DNA from: a virus | Virus record (IMG/VR): IMGVR_UViG_3300024239_000016 | Location: 49,678 to 113,677 of that record | DNA: 64,000 nt | Direction: 5' to 3' (one strand) | Shown here: piece after piece, positions 9,575-50,202 of the stretch | Numbering within the stretch: the stretch's first letter is position 1 | How the letters are laid out: each line of letters opens with the position of its first letter | The notes under the pieces: generated by a model | Seen by the model: the letters and a program-made list of their open reading frames with translations, nothing else | Told to the model about the DNA's origin: nothing | The model's database searches: none | Made by a program: the position numbers and the translations under genes

Positions 9575-9617
9575 ATACATCACTACCGGGCAATGCCCGG
9601 TAGTGATGTATTTTTTT
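9575..9617 (+). terminator. rho-independent terminator
   Basis: 17 bp perfect stem, AAT loop, T-tract. Confidence 0.75.
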
Positions 9618-9624
9618 ATAAAAA

Positions 9625-9632
9625 CATATTAC
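9625..9632 (+). promoter_or_regulatory. phiKZ-type early promoter motif (YATATTAC)
   Basis: CATATTAC after an AT-rich tract; the same motif recurs in several intergenic regions. Confidence 0.55.
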
Positions 9633-9675
9633 TTTACTGATTTCCTACCATTGTTAATTTGGGAGAAGCAAATAC

Positions 9676-10056
9676 ATGAACAACCGACGCATTCGTCTCA
9701 AATCAATTCGCGCGAAGCTTTATAAAGAGAACTGTATTATTCCGACCATAATCAGGAATGGTAAAGTCCTACGCAGAGCTCAACTGCGTTACGCCTACAT
9801 CGAAAGCCGCCCACGTAAAAACAATAAATCAAAACACAAATACGATACCTTTGCACATATCACATGCCCAAGTTGCGATGGCTTTGCTAGTCAGTACCGC
9901 TATGCCGAAACCGAAGAAGAACAAGCATATGAAGAAAAACAAATGTTGAAGCGCGGAGGCATTTTTCCGTATGCTGACATGTACGCATGTCGTGCAAAAA
10001 TCGGCAATGGTGTATGTAGTAGCGGTTATAGCAACAAGCGCTATCGGTTTTCTTAG
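9676..10056 (+). CDS. basic hypothetical protein with Cys motifs
   Basis: GGGAG RBS; CPSC and C-terminal Cys residues. Confidence 0.65.
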   Translation: MNNRRIRLKSIRAKLYKENCIIPTIIRNGKVLRRAQLRYAYIESRPRKNNKSKHKYDTFAHITCPSCDGFASQYRYAETEEEQAYEEKQMLKRGGIFPYADMYACRAKIGNGVCSSGYSNKRYRFS

Positions 10057-10102
10057 TGATTTAATTCGCAGCACATTTATGTGATGTAAAGTAACAAACA
10101 AA

Positions 10103-10821
10103 GGGCACCTGCTAATAAACTATCGGTAGTCAACGTGGCTGGCTATTAGAAATAATACCACGCTGCGATGGCGTAACGATAGAGTCGAAAGAAGCATAAA
10201 ACATCTATTCATTTTGGCACGCGTAAAACCTTAAAAAGATAGATGGGTGAATCTGTTCAAAGTCGGCGAATGCTGCGTCCGTTAGGACACGCTAACGCCG
10301 AGCCAAAACAAGTTGTCCTATTCAGCCTAACCTACCTTTAGTCGGATGTACTTGACCGGTAGTATGGCGGGGATGTAAATGCTAGTTCAGGTAAAACACT
10401 ACGGTGTAACTAGAATCTCGGGAGAGATCTAAAGACAGGCATTCTTGTGAGGTGTAGAGAGATGATGGACAGGACCTAAGTCTGCTGGCGATGATGTTTG
10501 TCGTTAAAACGAAGTTAACTCGATAGTGATATGGATAAATTGCCTATCATGATGACCGTGTTAGCGTAAGGAAGCAGATATGGTAAAGGCGATCTCCGGA
10601 CTACAACAATAGATGGACATGACGCGTGCGTTGCGAGACAGCACAAATCACATACATCTCTGATCGTCGTAAGACGATGTAGTGAGTTTCCTTAAACTAA
10701 AAGTGCATCCCAGTGCTGGCCTTATTAGCATTGCGTAGCCTGACAGCGTAACAGGTTAATTCTAGTTAAAGAAGAAAGTGCTCATGGATTAATACTAGGT
10801 AATCGCATCCATGACAGATGT
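10103..10821 (+). ncRNA. large ncRNA containing a group I intron catalytic core (copy 1; core about 10202-10686)
   Basis: P3 TCTGTTC(10252-58)/GGACAGG(10467-73); P4 TCGGCG/CGCCGA; P6 GCC/GGT; P7 G-A-GAGAT(10459-63)/ATCTC-C(10592-97); P9 ACTACA/TGTAGT; candidate omega-G at 10686. Confidence 0.75.
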
Positions 10822-10906
10822 GCCCAGGTGGCGAAATTGGTAGACGCACCAGATTTAGGTTCTGGCGCCTTCGGGTGTAGGGGTTCGATTCCCCTCTTGG
10901 GCACCA
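10822..10906 (+). tRNA. tRNA-Leu(TAG)
   Basis: cloverleaf; CCAGA-TTTAGGT-TCTGG anticodon arm, variable arm, GTTCGA, CCA end. Confidence 0.95.
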
Positions 10907-10908
10907 AA

Positions 10909-10996
10909 GGAGATATGGCTGAGTGACTTAAGGTACTCCCCTGCTAAGGGAGCGTACAGAAATGTATCGTTGGCTCGAATCCAACTATCTCCGCCA
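10909..10996 (+). tRNA. tRNA-Ser(GCT)
   Basis: GGAGATA/TATCTCC acceptor, CTGCTAA loop, long variable arm, GCCA end; atypical T loop CTCGAAT. Confidence 0.9.
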
Positions 10997-11019
10997 AGAA
11001 TTCAATAGTTGTTTTCATT

Positions 11020-11544
11020 GTGAGGGATCGAATGAAAAATCGTGTCAGTAAATACTTGACTAAGAAGTGCGCTCTGGAACTGCGTATCGTAATTGAGAAT
11101 TTCAATTACGATAAAATCACCGATGTTCAGCACATGACCGGTGTGACCGGTAGGCTTTGGCAAGCAGTTGGCTCGGAATTTGATGCACTCCAGTTAATTT
11201 TAATTGATTTTGAGCTGCTCCCAGATAACAAAACCGAAGCTACCTGCTATATTTTCGTGAGTATCGGCTACAATCCATCTGATGCTCTGCCCGCGTTACA
11301 TCAGCTCCAGTTGTTTATTGACAAATACTCAGCGCGACTTGCCGATACAGACGTAACTCCCGCTAAGCTTCGTATGGATGGGGTATCAAAAGCATTTCGC
11401 TTACAAGCATCAAAGCGCGCCGAATTTTTAGGTGATAAACTTGACGCCTCTATTTTCTTCAATCCTTTGCGTAAGAAAGTGTTGCGTGTCATTGCGGATG
11501 TGCACGAAAACTGCACAGGAACTCTGTGCATTGAGCTAAAGTAA
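11020..11544 (+). CDS. hypothetical protein
   Basis: 174 aa ORF between tRNAs; start may be ATG 11032. Confidence 0.65.
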   Translation: MRDRMKNRVSKYLTKKCALELRIVIENFNYDKITDVQHMTGVTGRLWQAVGSEFDALQLILIDFELLPDNKTEATCYIFVSIGYNPSDALPALHQLQLFIDKYSARLADTDVTPAKLRMDGVSKAFRLQASKRAEFLGDKLDASIFFNPLRKKVLRVIADVHENCTGTLCIELK

Positions 11545-11549
11545 AGACC

Positions 11550-11623
11550 GCCCCCGTAGCATGAAGGTCGTGCAGTTGATTTGTAATCATCAGGTGACAG
11601 TTCGATTCTGTCCGGGAGCACCA
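11550..11623 (+). tRNA. tRNA-Thr(TGT)
   Basis: TTTGTAA anticodon loop, GTTCGATT T loop, ACCA end; mismatches in acceptor and anticodon stems. Confidence 0.85.
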
Positions 11624-11651
11624 ATTTAAAATTTCAATCAGGAGAATTACC

Positions 11652-11840
11652 ATGTGGCCAGATCCAGCATGGTACTTCGATGATTTAAGTATTTTCAAAT
11701 ACTGGGTAGATCAATTCTATTCGATGGCTTGCAAACTCCGCTCCATCTTTAGCTGGCAGGCTGAAGAGGACCCATCCGTTACTGCCATGACGGAAGACGG
11801 TAGCAAGCTCGATTGGAAATTACCGCCCCTTCGGGGGTAA
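11652..11840 (+). CDS. small Trp/Asp-rich hypothetical protein
   Basis: AGGAG RBS; 62 aa. Confidence 0.55.
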   Translation: MWPDPAWYFDDLSIFKYWVDQFYSMACKLRSIFSWQAEEDPSVTAMTEDGSKLDWKLPPLRG

Positions 11841-11859
11841 TCATCAGAGTACCACACAA

Positions 11860-12110
11860 ACCGGAACCAGTTCCTGTACCGGTAGCTTTAAGCTCAATAG
11901 CCTCGTAGGAGGGTGAGGGATAGTTAATGGGCGCTATATCGACTTTGTCGTGATACCCATGAAATCGGTTAGCAGAGCCGATGGGCGACTTCTGTTAGTA
12001 TCAAGCGTTGAGGCTATGTTCAGGATTGTATTTGGGCATTCGACCATCTGTTTTAGATGTCTGGTTCGACTCCAGTAATGATACGATCTAGGGATCCCTT
12101 GGGTCCCTAT
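11860..12110 (+). ncRNA. putative structured ncRNA with tRNA-like T-arm
   Basis: ORF-free; ATAGCCTC/GAGGCTAT enclosing stem; CTGG-TTCGACT-CCAG T-arm; terminal hairpin. Confidence 0.4.
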
Positions 12111-12157
12111 TCTAAAGTGATTTATTTTACAATTATTTTAGAATAGTAAACTTTAAT

Positions 12158-12242
12158 CCGCGGGTGGCGAAATTGGTAGACGCATGAGACTTAAAATCTC
12201 ACACCGAAAGGTATATGGGTTCGACTCCCATACCGCGGACCA
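12158..12242 (+). tRNA. tRNA-Leu(TAA)
   Basis: TGAGA-CTTAAAA-TCTCA anticodon arm, GTTCGAC, ACCA end. Confidence 0.92.
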
Positions 12243-12273
12243 TATCTTCTTAATCAACGAAAGAAAGAAAATT

Positions 12274-12621
12274 ATGTCACGTAAAGAACATAAAGGTCAA
12301 AAATTCGATCTTGCTTACGGCGTAGATCGCTATAGTGGGGCTTTCGTTCAGCTCTTCCAATCTCCGATGGACGATCAAGATGGCGCTTTCCTCAACGTGG
12401 ATTCCCACGGAGTGCGTCTCGATGAAGATCATCCCGAACTGCCCACTGAGCTCACCAAAGTGATCTCGGGGCTGAAATTGGCTTTCTGCCGTTATAAGGA
12501 AGCTCACAACGATAATCCGAATCTCTCGGTCGATCATGTGCTGCATGTTGCCCGCGCAGCTGATCAATTCGATACCTTCTCGGAAAAAGAAGTGTATCAG
12601 GTCTTTGGCGATAACGCTTGA
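12274..12621 (+). CDS. hypothetical protein
   Basis: ATG at 12274; the longer ORF call overlaps the tRNA. Confidence 0.65.
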   Translation: MSRKEHKGQKFDLAYGVDRYSGAFVQLFQSPMDDQDGAFLNVDSHGVRLDEDHPELPTELTKVISGLKLAFCRYKEAHNDNPNLSVDHVLHVARAADQFDTFSEKEVYQVFGDNA

Positions 12622-12632
12622 AAAAAAAAAAG

Positions 12633-13200
12633 CATGTGCTCGCTATTGTCTGAATAGTAAAGAAAGCACGGACTTACTGAGTCCGATAGTGAGGCAGTCC
12701 TGCATTGTCGTCAGATCAAGGCCTATTCATGATAGGTACAGTTTGACATCAGACTCTGGCAGTTAGGCTGATCAGAAGTGGAGCCGTGATAGTTCCGGAT
12801 TTCGCAAAACCCTCAGATTACTTCTGTGGTCAGATGCGAGAGATGATGGAGTACCAGTGTCGAAGAGTGTGCGAGGGTGAACCTAGCGCTCTTAAACGGT
12901 CGACTAAATCAGAACTGATATTTGGCTATCGGCGATGAGGATTGGTTTAGAATCATGCCAATGTTCGAAATCCAAGTTCAAGGAGTTTATTGGGTAGTGA
13001 TGAGAGAACTATCCTAGATACGTTTTCTCATCACTAGAACAGACGACATCCAGGCGAAACTGGGTTAAGTGAACTAGACCCACCAATCCATAGCACATAG
13101 GTGAATACGCACTCCCTTAGGTCTAGAGTGTCAGTAGTTCGCGCGGACTACCTCGACAGCATCGCCCTTGCAAAGCGGTGCTGTCCTGGAAGTGCGCATG
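12633..13200 (+). ncRNA. large multistem ncRNA of about 570 nt (ROOL/GOLLD-like candidate)
   Basis: closing stem CATGTGC/GCGCATG, long-range TGTCGTC/GACGACA, many internal hairpins; ends 7 nt before tRNA-Pro. Confidence 0.6.
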
Positions 13201-13207
13201 AAATTGT

Positions 13208-13284
13208 CCGTTCGTAGCGCAGCCTGGTAGCGCATCTGTTTTGGGAACAGAGGGTCGCAAGTTCGAATTTTGCCGGGCGGACCA
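13208..13284 (+). tRNA. tRNA-Pro(TGG)
   Basis: TCTGT-TTTGGGA-ACAGA anticodon arm, GTTCGAAT, ACCA end. Confidence 0.93.
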
Positions 13285-13308
13285 TTCTTATTTTACCAAG
13301 AGGTAATC

Positions 13309-13551
13309 ATGCAATCAAACCATAAAAAAGATGGCGTTGAAGCAATAAAAGAGCTGATCAAAGAAGTATGGAATACGCTCAAACGGCTTATCGAAGACTG
13401 TTTCATTAAACTGATGCAAAAGCACATCAGGTGCTCTAGCAAAAAGAATTGGGTAGCGCGCAGCTCAAGTATTTTTTCTTTGGGCGACCGCAAATTACTT
13501 GGCATCAGGCGACATACCCCTGATCGTTGGCTAGGTTATATTCGGAATTAG
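13309..13551 (+). CDS. small basic hypothetical protein
   Basis: GAGGT RBS before ATG 13309. Confidence 0.55.
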   Translation: MQSNHKKDGVEAIKELIKEVWNTLKRLIEDCFIKLMQKHIRCSSKKNWVARSSSIFSLGDRKLLGIRRHTPDRWLGYIRN

Positions 13552-13572
13552 TAACATTGGGAGCGGTGTAAC

Positions 13573-13998
13573 ATGAATCTTCATTTCACATCCCCTAGCG
13601 TTGGGAGCGATGTATGGATTGTCAAGGAGGATAAAATCCTTGGCACTGGCGCTGTAGTGGGATTTGATGGACAAGATCGACTGAGTGTGATGTTAAAAGA
13701 CGCTGCAGCGAACGATCTACTTCCTCTGACTACCGATGACTTAAAAAGCATTGGTTATGGTTATTTATTTATCGGCTATGATGCGAATACGTGCGATTTA
13801 CATCGTAATCAGGCAATAGTCGATCTTATCAAAGATGACAGCCCTCTAATTGGCACTTCCATTGTTGATAAATTTAAACTCCGCTATGGTCTTGTTAACG
13901 ACCGTTTCAAAAATGTCCCTGGTTATCGCGAAGCGTGCATCATGGAAGTCGGCCAGTCATTGACTGAACTACCCCAGAGGTCCTGTGATGGTGCGTAG
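13573..13998 (+). CDS. hypothetical protein
   Basis: GGGAG RBS; 141 aa. Confidence 0.65.
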   Translation: MNLHFTSPSVGSDVWIVKEDKILGTGAVVGFDGQDRLSVMLKDAAANDLLPLTTDDLKSIGYGYLFIGYDANTCDLHRNQAIVDLIKDDSPLIGTSIVDKFKLRYGLVNDRFKNVPGYREACIMEVGQSLTELPQRSCDGA

Positions 13999-14542
13999 AA
14001 TATTTCAGAGCAGGGATTTACCGTGGCGTCAGCGTGTTACAATTGTTGTTGTCAACGATAACGGGAATGTCCTCATCGCTAATCAGCCCCCGTTACCGCC
14101 TTATAACGAAAAAATGCTGACCCTACCTGGAGGCGGCATTGAGCCAGGACAGACTCCAGAAGAGGCAGTAGCAGCTGAGCTTCTTGAAGAGGTTGGCGTC
14201 AAAGTAAGCGGCATTCAGGTACTTGACTGTCATACATTCGAAGAGCCGTTTACCGTGCTAAAGCCAGGAGAAGGTACCCCAGTTCAAATCGAGCGTCGCA
14301 AGTTGTTTAAAGGCGTACAATCTGTTGCTTATTTTGCCAAGTTCGAACGCACCATCAATGGTGGTAAAGGCACTGGCAATGATGCAATGGAATGGGAATG
14401 GTATCCGTTCCATAGGGCTACTGGAATAATGCTCGCTCAGCGTGCCCTGGCAATTAAAACTGGAAGAAATGGAAAGCTCCATATGTTCATGGCAGACGCG
14501 ATCAGGGTCGCTAAAGACCATTTTTATAAAATAGAAAGCTAA
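13988..14542 (+). CDS. Nudix hydrolase
   Basis: Nudix box LPGGGIEPGQTPEEAVAAELLEEVGV. Confidence 0.85.
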   Translation: MVRRIFQSRDLPWRQRVTIVVVNDNGNVLIANQPPLPPYNEKMLTLPGGGIEPGQTPEEAVAAELLEEVGVKVSGIQVLDCHTFEEPFTVLKPGEGTPVQIERRKLFKGVQSVAYFAKFERTINGGKGTGNDAMEWEWYPFHRATGIMLAQRALAIKTGRNGKLHMFMADAIRVAKDHFYKIES

Positions 14543-14559
14543 ACTGCTCGCTAGTATGA

Positions 14560-15560
14560 GCGGGTGAAGCTTCAATTAGGGCATTACCGAAAAATACGCT
14601 GGTAGTAGTGAAGAGATTCTTGTATCGATGACAGATAGCTGTCGGTATTTCCGTGTCATGGCGGATAGATCAGCGAGTACTTTACACGGAACAGCGTAAC
14701 CGAAAGGCGGTAAAACAACACCATGAAAGCGGACATCCGCGCGCACATGTGTAGTACCGGTCATACAGACCGGAACGAGCTACTCTGACGCGATGGAAAA
14801 AATGGGCTGCCATAGTGGAGAACTCTTAGTAGTGTTTAGGATAGCTGTGAGACAATGAAGCTCAGTCGCCAGGTTGAGTGGAGTCATCCTTGAAATAGCA
14901 GCCATAAACGGAGTTCAGTTGAATGCAGTGTGATGAATCGTACGCCGCGTGGCCAGGCGATGAAATCACATTCCTCGGAAAGTCGGCGAATGTTTGATGT
15001 GTAAGGCCGTTGGGTCTCCGTGAGAGCGGAGACTGGAACAAGGTGAAACGGCGTTGAGTCGTCAGTGCTAAACTAACGAACAACGAGGCTGGGTCGAAAG
15101 ATGCCGCTTACTGGATGTTCGAATCGTCCCACAATACTAACGCCGAGCCAAGTCTGTGTGATCCGTAATGGGAAAATCGCCTCTGTAAAAAAGTCCAGTG
15201 TGCGAGGATGCTGTTGCGAACTATCAGAAAGGTGTAGAGAGTAGACCCGAGGGACCTAAAACAATTTGTCGATAATAGCTATTGGATCACTTCATCGCGC
15301 GCCGCGGGGTGTTGGTCTAGTAACAGGTAGCTTAGATGGGTTGTCATGGTAGAGGCGTATTCCAGACCACAAACAAAATCAGGGCTCCTAAAGAAAGAGT
15401 AACGCCTGTTTCTGGTAGTGAAAACTATAGTGGTAGGCTTCCTAAGCCTGTATCTCCTGTTCTAGACATAGGGGATGGTTTCTTCAATAGAAGCAGTACC
15501 ACGAGATAATATCGGTATTCTTAGATACTATCGTAAAACTCGTGCACAAAGAGTTCAGTA
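14560..15560 (+). ncRNA. large ncRNA containing a group I intron catalytic core (copy 2; core about 14928-15436)
   Basis: P3 TCCTCGG(14972-78)/CCGAGGG(15247-53); P4 TCGGCG/CGCCGA; P7 G-A-GAGTA(15239-43)/TATTC-C(15358-63); P9 ACCAC/GTGGT with GGTAG-TGAAAA-CTAT hairpin; candidate omega-G at 15436. Confidence 0.75.
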
Positions 15561-15648
15561 GGGGGTTTGGCAGAGCGGTCGATTGCACTGGTCTTGAAAA
15601 CCAGCGATGGGAAACCATCCGTGAGTTCGAATCTCACAGCCCCCGCCA
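15561..15648 (+). tRNA. tRNA-Ser(TGA)
   Basis: CTGGT-CTTGAAA-ACCAG anticodon arm, long variable arm, GCCA end. Confidence 0.95.
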
Positions 15649-15658
15649 ACAAAGGAGA

Positions 15659-16119
15659 TCTGATTGCGAAGTCTTGGTCGTAAAGTTTTAATTCTTACGG
15701 CCTCGTGTCTTTTGGCAGCTACGTTTCCTCTTATCGTTTTTGGATTAAGCAACAAAGCTCAATCTGTCGTATGCTTACCGTCCCAGTTAGTAGGACTGGA
15801 TAACAGTAGTTCAGTACGGAAAGCAGATAGCTGGTTAAGTGATGTTGATGAACAATCGGCACGCCTTGCCGATCCGCAGCGCCCTATCAGCGCATATAAC
15901 CCAAATCGCCTAAGAGCTAATGCAAGACATGGTAAGGGACCATGAGTCTGCACCCAAACTACACCAGGTCACGTGTAAACACTCACAAACAAATACCACT
16001 CGTGTGGTAGAGCGTTAGAAGCTAAAGCTATGGTAGCCGAAGATGATTGTGGATCGTACATCGAACATAATTCCTGATCAGAGTTACGATCGATAAGATG
16101 CGACCATTGAAGACTCAGA
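15659..16119 (+). ncRNA. putative structured ncRNA of about 460 nt
   Basis: nested long-range stems AGTCTT/AAGACT, GGTCGTA/TGCGACC and TCTTATCG/CGATAAGA, plus internal hairpins. Confidence 0.55.
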
Positions 16120-16298
16120 GCCAACCAACGATTACGCTATAAAGAAGCAAAGGATTTATCCGAGCGCACTGTGTCGCATTAAAGGTGGATCCGACAGTTT
16201 CAATTGCAGACTGAGAAAGCTCTCAGTCTGCAATCCAGTTTGTATCTTACCGTGTACCAACTGGATTGCACGACTGTGTAAAAGTTAGATAGAGATAA

Positions 16299-16508
16299 AT
16301 GCCAAAATTTACTTTACATCAGTATAAATTAGTCAATTGCTCTTTAGCTAAAGCTCTTGGCGACAACAGCGCTAAAACCGTAATTGACCTTGCAAGAGGT
16401 CGAGTGTGCCCAATTTGCCATAATTATAAAAATGGCGGATGCGCGGCTTCTCGTAAATTGTTGGAGTTAAGAATGAACAAAAAAATTAACGACGAGATCC
16501 CACTGTAG
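16299..16508 (+). CDS. small protein with CPIC motif
   Basis: 69 aa ORF; purine-rich upstream sequence. Confidence 0.5.
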   Translation: MPKFTLHQYKLVNCSLAKALGDNSAKTVIDLARGRVCPICHNYKNGGCAASRKLLELRMNKKINDEIPL

Positions 16509-16564
16509 CGTTCAGCGAGAATGCCAAAAGATAGTCTTTTGGACGCTGAGCGCGGGAGAGAATC

Positions 16565-16819
16565 TTGTCCAGATCACTGCGTGTGTATAAAACCAAAGTT
16601 AAGAAATTGGCTAGGTTAAAAAGGATTACTGCCAAGAGTTACGCTGCCATCGGTTTTGTAAAGGTAAACGTTCTGTTACAGACTCCTAAAATCTGTAGTT
16701 GTCATATGTGCGGCAATGCAAGAAAGCACTATAGGCGCCGCACGCTTAAAGAAGAGCGCGACCTTGTTGATTACAAGGAGCAGCTTAAGAGCCTTTCGTT
16801 GATCCCTTCCTACAGGTAG
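16565..16819 (+). CDS. small basic Zn-finger-like protein (CSCHMCGN)
   Basis: GGGAG RBS, TTG start; CSCxxCGN motif seen in small phage proteins. Confidence 0.6.
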   Translation: MSRSLRVYKTKVKKLARLKRITAKSYAAIGFVKVNVLLQTPKICSCHMCGNARKHYRRRTLKEERDLVDYKEQLKSLSLIPSYR

Positions 16820-16824
16820 ACTAA

Positions 16825-17170
16825 CTTGGGTGATTGTAGGAGTAGCCCAAAAATAAGCCGTAACAAGCTGGGAAGAAAACCCAGTACCATTTTAGCGAAT
16901 GGTGAGGAGTGTTACGGAGCCATGATGAGTTATTTTAACCAACGACCAATCAGGATTCTCGAATCTAAATGCGACATATGGCCTTAGTGACATCATAGCG
17001 GCTGACCACTCGGCAATATATGGCTGGCCGGCCCGGTCCCTGGCGCGATCCGCGAGTGCTCGCGGATATCCGCCGCTGCCGACTTGTTGCAAATAGATGG
17101 ATCCAGATGTAACTCAATATTGGTGTACCGCAGCACGCCCCTAGGGGCGTGCTGTAGTTAATTTATTTTT
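16825..17170 (+). ncRNA. putative structured ncRNA ending in a terminator
   Basis: CCGTAACA/TGTTACGG multiway junction, GC-rich hairpins, terminator stem 17130-17155. Confidence 0.45.
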
Positions 17171-49401: not shown

Positions 49402-50202
49402 TTATCTATGCGCACTTATCAAAGAACGGATTGTACGAGATTTACTTTCGCGATCATTCAGAATGAGGATCTTGGCCCATTTAACCACCATCTCATCGTA
49501 CATCTCGTAATCGTCAGCGTAGCCATCAATCAAGCTCGAGATAATGCCCAATTCATGACCACCCTTCATTGCTCCTTCATCGAGATCTACCCTTGTATGG
49601 TTGTAGATGTATCCCTTAACAGCATGCAAGACCATCTTCGCAAAGATCGTGTAATAGCGAGGACGAATTTTTGTAAGATTGGTATCATGTGTGATAATAC
49701 AACGTAGATAAGAAGTGCGCGGTAAGAACACGTTATCCTTCACCATTACGGTGTTTTCAGCAATGAGTTCGATGTTTGCCGTTGACATCACTGGCAGCAT
49801 TGCTAGGGCATCAGTGATGCCCTGGGTAAGACGCAGCATTGCGTTACCAGATAGCGCGCCAGCTAAGCTCTGCTGAAGCTGCTTAGTGGGATCTACGTGC
49901 AGGACATGTAAGAGAGACATAATGGATTGTCCATTAGTGATCTCCTTCGGTACTCGGAATACATAGGTCACGTCATCAGTACGTTCACTTGGTACGCGAC
50001 TCAGATCGATCAGTACCTCAGTACCGCCTACCAGATTGCAATCGACCATGACCATTGGTCTGATCACCAGATCCATGATCTGGCTATCGATTGTTTTTGG
50101 GGTGAATCCATATCCGCGGCTATTAGACATGAATGCGTATCTGAGAACTTGTGGCGGGATTCTTGCCTTGACATGGTCAATGGCTTTATTCGCAATGTTC
50201 AT
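49402..50202 (-). CDS. conserved phiKZ-like protein, putative virion component
   Basis: IPPQVL, DCNLVGG and K.YIYN motifs; GGGAG RBS. Confidence 0.65.
   Translation of the reverse strand: MNIANKAIDHVKARIPPQVLRYAFMSNSRGYGFTPKTIDSQIMDLVIRPMVMVDCNLVGGTEVLIDLSRVPSERTDDVTYVFRVPKEITNGQSIMSLLHVLHVDPTKQLQQSLAGALSGNAMLRLTQGITDALAMLPVMSTANIELIAENTVMVKDNVFLPRTSYLRCIITHDTNLTKIRPRYYTIFAKMVLHAVKGYIYNHTRVDLDEGAMKGGHELGIISSLIDGYADDYEMYDEMVVKWAKILILNDRESKSRTIRSLISAHR

Follow-up and report, generated by a model that had tools for sequence, protein, structure and literature searches.

An orphan group I ribozyme in a phage tRNA island, with a predicted anticodon-arm-like hairpin complementary to its guide

Introduction

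Natural group I ribozymes are almost always introns, and to our knowledge only a couple of cases of re-use of the fold for another purpose are known. The forms closest to the element described here are the IC3 introns of transfer RNA (tRNA) anticodon loops, such as those of Azoarcus tRNA-Ile and of the cyanobacterial tRNA-Leu type (Rfam RF00028). Group I-derived elements that serve in processing or regulation upstream of a gene include the lariat-capping (GIR1) ribozyme and, in Clostridioides difficile, a group I ribozyme under the control of cyclic di-GMP (c-di-GMP). Here we analysed a stretch of 64,000 nucleotides (nt) of viral DNA, called the window below (positions 49,678 to 113,677 of the IMG/VR record IMGVR_UViG_3300024239_000016, which is 194 kb long and an estimated 73% complete). 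The window holds two related elements on its + strand, copy 1 (10103-10698) and copy 2 (14579-15449, ~870 nt). Copy 2, the main subject of this report, is by homology derived from the ornate group I introns of phage tRNA anticodon loops, and it stands outside any tRNA gene. It is called an orphan here, as are its relatives in the same position, and relatives inside tRNA genes are called embedded.

Copy 2 shares with IC3 tRNA introns the core blocks, the P3/P7 pseudoknot, a GAAA-capped P9b, the end of P9 and a P1 of three base pairs (bp) formed from the triplet just 5' of P2. Unlike those introns, it is about four times larger owing to insertions in P2, P5, P6 and P8, lies outside a tRNA, has no Rfam match, carries the orphan type of guide, which is complementary to a downstream hairpin loop, and belongs to a subgroup in which the terminal G is not conserved. 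The embedded ornate introns resemble it more closely, having a homologous expanded P2, enlarged P5, P6 and P8 and inserts that resemble T-arms or tRNAs, but they are flanked by tRNA exons on both sides, their guide fits the 5' exon and their ACG, with the terminal G, never varies, whereas copy 2 is without exon features. Compared with GIR1 and the C. difficile ribozyme, copy 2 has neither a GIR1 match in Rfam (E<=10) nor a riboswitch aptamer, and the reaction proposed for it below, cis cleavage of a 3' hairpin loop, is a different one. A 72-nt insert in copy 2 is similar in sequence and structure, including both T-loop strands, to the L1 stalk of 23S ribosomal RNA (rRNA; helices H76-78), whose known counterparts are the apex of T-box stem I and the J11/12-J12/13 region of RNase P; in copy 2, in contrast to the L1 stalk, the module interrupts the P2 domain of a phage-encoded ribozyme and does not belong to an rRNA, and its binding of protein or tRNA is only putative. 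Like GOLLD and ROOL, copy 2 is a large, phage-borne, tRNA-linked RNA free of open reading frames (ORFs); unlike them, it has a recognisable catalytic core, and it matches neither Rfam family. In the literature searched, neither tRNA-type group I ribozymes of an orphan or ornate form nor an intron with an L1-stalk mimic was found described; the same holds there for the relaxed terminal G and for the orphan topology.

Results

The two copies share exact sequence blocks. The 14-nt P4/J4-5 block occurs exactly twice in the window, at 10259 and 14979, and the 15-nt J5-4/P4' block also exactly twice, at 10292 and 15137, each against a chance expectation of 0.01-0.03; the R block and the start of P8 are likewise common to both copies, at 10450 and 15230. 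The core blocks resemble those of the Azoarcus tRNA-Ile IC3 intron, a likeness that was used as a lead and then tested with data. The parts of the two elements that bear on this question are as follows, all on the + strand; the helices P3, P4 and P7 of copy 2 were read from the sequence.

14973 to 15363, + strand: catalytic core of copy 2, P3 to P8 plus P7', from the exact blocks, the covariance model R1 (see below) and block-wise comparison with relatives
14973-78/15247-52, + strand: P3 of copy 2
14983-88/15141-46, + strand: P4 of copy 2
14993 to 15136, + strand: P5 insert of copy 2
15147 to 15229, + strand: P6 of copy 2
15237-43/15358-63, + strand: P7 of copy 2
15253 to 15345, + strand: P8 of copy 2
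15365 to 15437, + strand: 3' part of copy 2, with P9 (15365-70/15430-34), GAAA-capped P9b and then AGG, with almost the same sequence as compact tRNA introns have at their 3' end
10103-05, + strand: guide GGG of copy 1
10106-09/10246-49, + strand: P2 of copy 1
10253-58/10467-72, + strand: P3 of copy 1
10457-63/10592-97, + strand: P7 of copy 1
10599-604/10679-83, + strand: P9 of copy 1, followed by G10686
10685-98, + strand: hairpin of copy 1, with loop CCU at 10690-92

Helices P2, P3, P7 and P9 covary between the copies, and P3 and P7, read at these coordinates, differ by compensatory changes and still pair in both, as an earlier note on this DNA had claimed. In P7 of copy 2 the guanosine site can be laid out at the sequence level as G15237, a bulged A15238, the paired strands 15239-43/15358-62 and a closing C15363, and the same layout is present in copy 1 and all relatives. 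J4/5, J6/7, J8/7 and other core residues are as conserved in the orphans as in the embedded members, and J8/7, P7', P9, P9b and the final AGG of copy 2 are almost letter-for-letter those of compact introns. Two of the insertions, of ~144 nt (P5) and ~95 nt (P8), had been noticed before, whereas a third, of ~78 nt in P6, had been overlooked.

With the Rfam models, searches over positions 10000-17000 at the gathering threshold and at E<=10 returned no match to group I (RF00028), GOLLD, ROOL or GIR1. The Rfam group I model misses copy 2 because of the insertions in P5, P6 and P8. A degenerate R-block pattern, on the other hand, retrieved more than 119 viral contigs, of which those sampled were Rfam RF00028 matches of 190-230 nt; ARAGORN placed these compact introns in the anticodon loops of phage tRNA genes and called 158 of the 170 with full flanks as intron-containing tRNAs. 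From 27 non-redundant compact phage tRNA introns, aligned from P3 to the terminal G, the covariance model R1 was built. Run over the window with filters off, its four best + strand matches were colinear within the two loci (copy 2, 17.7 + 40.5 bits), and over the 194-kb record its sole matches were copy 2 (54.4 bits, E 1e-10) and copy 1 (31.8 bits, E 2e-5), E-values from such custom models being rough. The R1 alignment of copy 2 stops at G15437, the canonical position of the terminal G. The lack of a group I model match, which the earlier note had named as evidence to the contrary, is therefore true of RF00028 and untrue of R1, which matches both copies. Together, the exact blocks, the R1 matches and the compensatory differences in P3 and P7 indicate that copies 1 and 2 are, on this comparative evidence, real IC3-type group I ribozymes and that copy 2 is a covarying paralogue of copy 1, as had been supposed.

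Four of the compact introns (L027, L078, L084 and L096) are followed by a normal tRNA 3' half, but where a tRNA 5' half would be expected an HNH-like ORF ends directly before the intron; the tRNA genes in question may be split or rearranged. The exact R-block pattern of the two copies gave zero matches across viral contigs. In metagenomes it gave 83 loci, and all of these belong to a soil family of compact form that is not related to the orphans; the soil contigs L124-L203 (~80) represent one such family of compact group I introns, which has the GAGAG/GACC R-block variant of the window copies and a normal size. A pattern scan of genome contigs yielded chance or unclear matches only, and blastn of copy 1, copy 2 and the orphan L208 against cultured phages had zero matches.

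Close relatives were recovered by exact-pattern scans only: a scan for a core with enlarged P8 led to four contigs, and scans for two conserved 5' strings led to more. They are listed here with their settings.

L209: embedded, its intron of 613 nt interrupting tRNA-Arg(UCU) on a phage contig of 250 kb
L219 and L237: embedded, in tRNA-Leu(UAA)
L253 and L231/L261: embedded, in tRNAs with a CAU anticodon (Met/Ile-type)
L207: embedded, a 530-nt enlarged intron in a tRNA with an Arg(UCU) loop, lacking the shared P2 module and left out of family counts
L208, L210, L241, L255 and L262: five further orphans, besides copy 1 and copy 2

The embedded members have tRNA halves on both flanks, while the orphans lie directly 5' of intact tRNAs (copy 1, copy 2, L208, L255 and L262) or of ORFs (L210 and L241). 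As a separate observation, islands with ornate tRNA introns, those of L237 (2524-2979, 5446-5667) and L219 (12168-12417), also hold GOLLD RNA (175.8 bits; located in the L237 island) and permuted transfer-messenger RNAs (tmRNAs).

The relatives also explain the region upstream of the core. In the embedded members, the triplet preceding P2 covaries with the 5' exon (GAG with CUU|, GUG with CAU|), and this match fixes the guides at 14579-81 in copy 2 and at 10103-05 in copy 1, both GGG. Alignment A3 of copy 2 with nine relatives shows a 5' region whose order is triplet, P2 strand with an A-rich module, GAAA-hairpin module, P2 return strand, short joiner and P3, and this architecture is common to the window copies, the embedded members and the orphans, L207 excepted.

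14579 to 14581, + strand: internal guide triplet GGG of copy 2 (the P1 strand), directly 5' of the P2 strand, by homology with tRNA-embedded relatives
14582 to 14972, + strand: expanded P2 domain of copy 2, from alignment A3 and the RNAalifold consensus
14582-87/14930-35, + strand: closing helix of P2
14595-601/14693-99, + strand: long-range helix in the P2 domain
14701-17, + strand: GAAA hairpin module in the P2 domain

The conserved P2 module is matched in copy 2 at 14582-97 and 14701-17. RNAalifold on A3 pairs the closing helix in 10 of 10 sequences, with a compensated U-A in copy 2 and L210; in the 7-bp long-range helix both strands are changed in copy 2 and the pairing is still perfect; and double (compensatory) changes occur in 7 of the 18 consensus pairs. 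The thermodynamic fold of the 5' domains is undistinctive (z = -1.15 for the upstream domain of copy 2), so that the reality of this domain follows from homology and covariation with relatives and not from fold energy. The 370-nt structured 5' domain proposed in the earlier note is real in this sense, but by alignment it is the ribozyme's own expanded P2, neither a separate domain nor a 5' exon, and the stems named for it fall in variable inserts. A helix 14928-34/14965-71, considered as the one closing P2, was dropped, as the alignment favours 14582-87/14930-35. As candidates for P1, the hairpin at 14545-66 and the shared CUGCU were dropped because homology puts the guides at the positions given above; the earlier pairing of 10113 with 10125 as P1 of copy 1 was dropped because that G is within the conserved P2 module of relatives.

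At the 3' end, copy 2 carries a feature that sets the orphans apart.

15435 to 15449, + strand: anticodon-arm-like hairpin of copy 2 with a stem of 6 bp, whose loop triplet CCU (15441-43) is complementary to the GGG of the guide

A small hairpin 0-4 nt 3' of P9 is present in all seven orphans, and the embedded members are without it. The stems differ in every case (seven stems of 4-6 bp), and because seven different stems all pair, the hairpin appears to be selected for pairing. Its loop is matched to the guide in two classes.

Guide GGG, loop CCU: copy 1, copy 2, L208 and L210
Guide GCC, loop GGU: L241, L255 and L262

In the guide-loop pairing of all seven orphans the first guide G is opposite U, forming a G·U wobble, with no Watson-Crick replacement. 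A G·U wobble marks the reactive phosphate in group I ribozymes. The 7-nt hairpin loop of copy 2, UUCCUAA, resembles the anticodon loop of tRNA-Arg(CCU), and that of L241 resembles tRNA-Thr(GGU). Among the compact introns, the 12 of 170 without a called tRNA were searched for a guide-matched hairpin and none was found. The third or fourth nucleotide following P9 is a G in every one of 64 non-redundant compact tRNA introns and in all 5 of the embedded ornate members (as ACG), compared with 4 of 7 orphans. Nothing is conserved 5' of the guide among the orphans; pyrimidine or GGU triplets lie upstream in copy 2, L210, L241 and L255, and such upstream triplet matches have a chance expectation of ~0.3-0.7 per element. 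In copy 2, GCUU at 14569-72 could pair with 14579-82, and copy 1 and L262 are without a comparable upstream partner.

Neither copy is embedded in an ORF or a tRNA. Copy 2 occupies a 1018-nt gap between an ORF for a NUDIX hydrolase (13985-14542) and tRNA-Ser(UGA) at 15561, and copy 1 sits in the gap preceding tRNA-Leu at 10822.

15561 to 15648, + strand: tRNA-Ser(UGA), intact, called by ARAGORN and the Rfam tRNA model, 111 nt 3' of the copy 2 hairpin

The distance from the terminal G to the tRNA had been put at 125-135 nt, and was measured as 124 nt (G15437 to tRNA-Ser) and 136 nt (G10686 to tRNA-Leu). ARAGORN, with introns of up to 1500 nt allowed, called only six intact tRNAs, none of which spans either copy. 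Excision of the core could have rejoined a tRNA or an ORF, as the earlier note considered; the trial excisions over 60 x 22 = 1320 boundary pairs for copy 2 and 68 x 20 = 1360 for copy 1 restored zero tRNAs, and at most 26 and 19 codons, respectively, stayed open across the junctions. The insertions are too short to contain an ORF for a homing endonuclease, and with tRNA-Ser 3' of copy 2 the description of the element as endonuclease-free and adjoining a tRNA holds. Its description as an intron with non-coding exons is weakened at the family level by the variable terminal G, the guide-loop pairing and the absence of a conserved 5' exon partner.

Copy 2 moreover contains mimics of other structured RNAs.

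14833 to 14904, + strand: insert in the copy 2 P2 domain that mimics the L1 stalk of 23S rRNA (H76-78, double T-loop module)
15113 to 15129, + strand: perfect T-arm mimic of copy 2, 5-bp stem and 7-nt loop UUCGAAU, inside the P5 insert, read from the sequence

The 72-nt L1-like insert matches positions 2135-2206 of the Rfam model LSU_rRNA_bacteria with 50.4 bits (gathering score 50; E 4.6e-12), and it reproduces the rRNA consensus exactly in both of the single-stranded T-loop strands. The match is limited to these 72 nt inside the P2 domain and is not part of an rRNA gene. L215 has a homologous module, with 82% identity and compensated pairs in the outer helix (H76), immediately 5' of a group I-like RNA that is divergent. 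The covariance model R2, built from the L1-like modules of copy 2 and L215, found no other convincing copy in the family loci; by these comparisons the L1 mimic is a sporadic insert of two elements only. L209, L210 and L219 have inserts in P5 or P6 that resemble a T-arm or an entire tRNA. Both kinds of mimic are lineage-specific, and they probably clamp the P2 extension to that of P5, or recruit the ribosomal protein uL1 or a tRNA elbow; the L1 stalk's head docks tRNA elbows through a module that it has in common with T-box stem I and RNase P (PMC3664808; Lehmann et al.). As a separate observation, a tRNA-like sequence at 6921-6987 of L209 (Rfam tRNA, 34.3 bits) is nested in P5 of the 613-nt intron in tRNA-Arg(UCU). 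In L215 (- strand, ~2250-2790 in reverse-complement coordinates) a P2-type 5' module is followed by a strongly diverged group I-like core, and in L226 and L254 such a module is followed by no recognisable core, R1 having no match in their records.

Discussion

Copy 2 may be a domesticated group I ribozyme that docks a mimic of an anticodon arm and cuts it with guanosine in cis, a reading to which we give about even credence. In this proposal the topology would be changed such that the substrate helix P1 forms without an upstream exon, the guide GGG at 14579-81 pairing with the loop CCU at 15441-43, and the hairpin would be a stand-in for the tRNA anticodon arm recognised by the ancestral intron. 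The first step of splicing would then be carried out in cis, with free guanosine or GTP bound in P7 attacking after U15443 (in copy 1, after U10692). Such cleavage would free the ribozyme from the downstream leader and tRNA-Ser and leave an added G at the 5' end of the downstream RNA. With an uninterrupted RNA chain in the loop and a terminal G that can be dispensed with, first-step chemistry in cis would be the simplest reaction. Several points weigh against this proposal. The relatives, found by exact patterns and including seven orphans, are a sample biased to conserved members, and RF00028 misses the element. Covariation of guide and loop consists of two compensatory base-pair changes that separate two classes, which may be two clades, so that the covariation may stem from a single event. 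The canonical terminal position is still a G in both window copies, GCUU (14569-72) is a weak upstream partner for the guide of copy 2, and a P1 of 3 bp is short, though the embedded relatives have one of equal length.

Some of these points would suit a conventional self-splicing intron, selfish and endonuclease-free, in the non-coding spacer of a polycistronic tRNA precursor. In copy 2 the 5' splice would fall after U14572 and the 3' splice after G15437, with non-coding ligated exons. The complete core and the canonical terminal G of both window copies agree with such an intron, as do the GCUU 5-6 nt 5' of the guide in copy 2 and L210, which could pair with GGGC, and the GGU found 13-15 nt upstream in L241 and L255, whose guide is GCC. 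However, copy 1 and L262 are without an upstream partner, L208 has merely a run of U 3 nt before the guide, and the upstream triplets are expected by chance at the rate given above. The terminal G is absent at positions 3-4 in 3 of 7 orphans, compared with 0 of 64 compact and 0 of 5 embedded introns; the guide has a better pairing partner in the downstream loop (two G-C and a G·U) than in GCUU (one G-C and two G·U in the triplet); and the conserved hairpin would be left unexplained. Splicing of this kind is therefore rather unlikely. The dispensable terminal G would in turn be expected of a catalytically retired scaffold, in which the fold closed by the guide and loop displays modules and could sequester uL1, tRNAs or other host factors. 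Large lineage-specific insertions, the intactness of both T-loop strands of the L1 mimic and the presence of GOLLD and permuted tmRNA in similar tRNA islands are consistent with a scaffold, but the joining strands that bear the catalytic residues (J4/5, J6/7 and J8/7) are conserved to the level of true introns, and so are the guanosine site and the G·U wobble. A structural contact would allow a Watson-Crick pair in place of the G·U, which 0 of 7 orphans show, and the L1 mimic, present in two elements only, does not explain the family; we regard retirement as distinctly unlikely.

The same L1-like module can be read differently, as the part of a trans-acting, tRNA-directed ribozyme that docks the tRNA elbow while the guide recognises the anticodon, CCU, of a host tRNA-Arg. 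The anticodon loop would be cut or reverse-spliced, and the cis hairpin would be an autoinhibitory decoy. The loop UUCCUAA of copy 2 is a perfect 7-nt mimic of an anticodon loop, the module lies beside the guide and P2 in both carriers of the L1 mimic, and the L1 stalk head is known to dock tRNA elbows, as are T-box stem I and RNase P (PMC3664808). Yet this account is inferential throughout, five of the seven orphans are without the L1 mimic, a 3-nt guide provides little specificity in trans, and the cis hairpin would outcompete trans substrates, so that both the recognition of a host tRNA and the cutting or reverse splicing of its loop are very doubtful. A bolder form, in which copy 2 would be a T-box- or RNase P-like ribozyme that recognises tRNAs and serves the phage as an RNA-only anticodon nuclease or tRNA editor, with the cis hairpin as decoy or switch, is a long shot. 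Finally, the element could be a tRNA intron in decay, left without a function after a rearrangement destroyed its host tRNA. The host gene is indeed gone, the terminal G varies in the family, and cores have diverged or been lost in the first element of L215 and in L226 and L254. Against decay, the exact core blocks were kept while the periphery diverged, compensatory changes occur in P2, P3, P7, P9 and the hairpin, and the architecture is maintained in seven orphans on unrelated contigs, which makes a mere remnant highly improbable.

The family thus described is a small one of jumbo-phage tRNA islands that keeps a catalytic core and drops the features of an intron, namely the host gene and selection on the terminal G, replacing them with a substrate-like anticodon-arm hairpin matched to the guide. 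If cis cleavage is true, it would be a new natural use of group I chemistry, an RNA processing step after which the downstream RNA bears a G (possibly with a triphosphate), and a clear example of intron domestication in a sequence-defined, testable system. The L1-stalk mimic and the tRNA-like inserts moreover represent rRNA and tRNA modules recycled as peripheral parts of a ribozyme.

Surrounding region

Both copies belong to a + strand RNA island (9620-17155) with six tRNAs, a few small ORFs and several long tracts without ORFs. Strong terminator-like + strand hairpins at 9575-9611 (17 pairs) and 17130-17155 (11 pairs) flank this island, and their bracketing position suggests that it is transcribed as one or a few long precursors. 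The NUDIX ORF upstream of copy 2 is complete (Pfam NUDIX 4e-17, residues 15-145 of 185), and its protein, used for a synteny search, found zero relatives. A second long ORF-free tract, 12633-13207, ends at tRNA-Pro and matches no Rfam family; model R2 gives within it a weak, non-significant match at 12978-13059 (18.3 bits, E 0.06), and the tract may be another ornate RNA of the island. In the non-coding gap 11841-12157 before tRNA-Leu(UAA), a T-arm-like hairpin with the loop TTCGACT is located at ~12058-12076. Neither ARAGORN nor Rfam calls a tRNA there, and the hairpin may be a tRNA fragment or a tRNA-like module.

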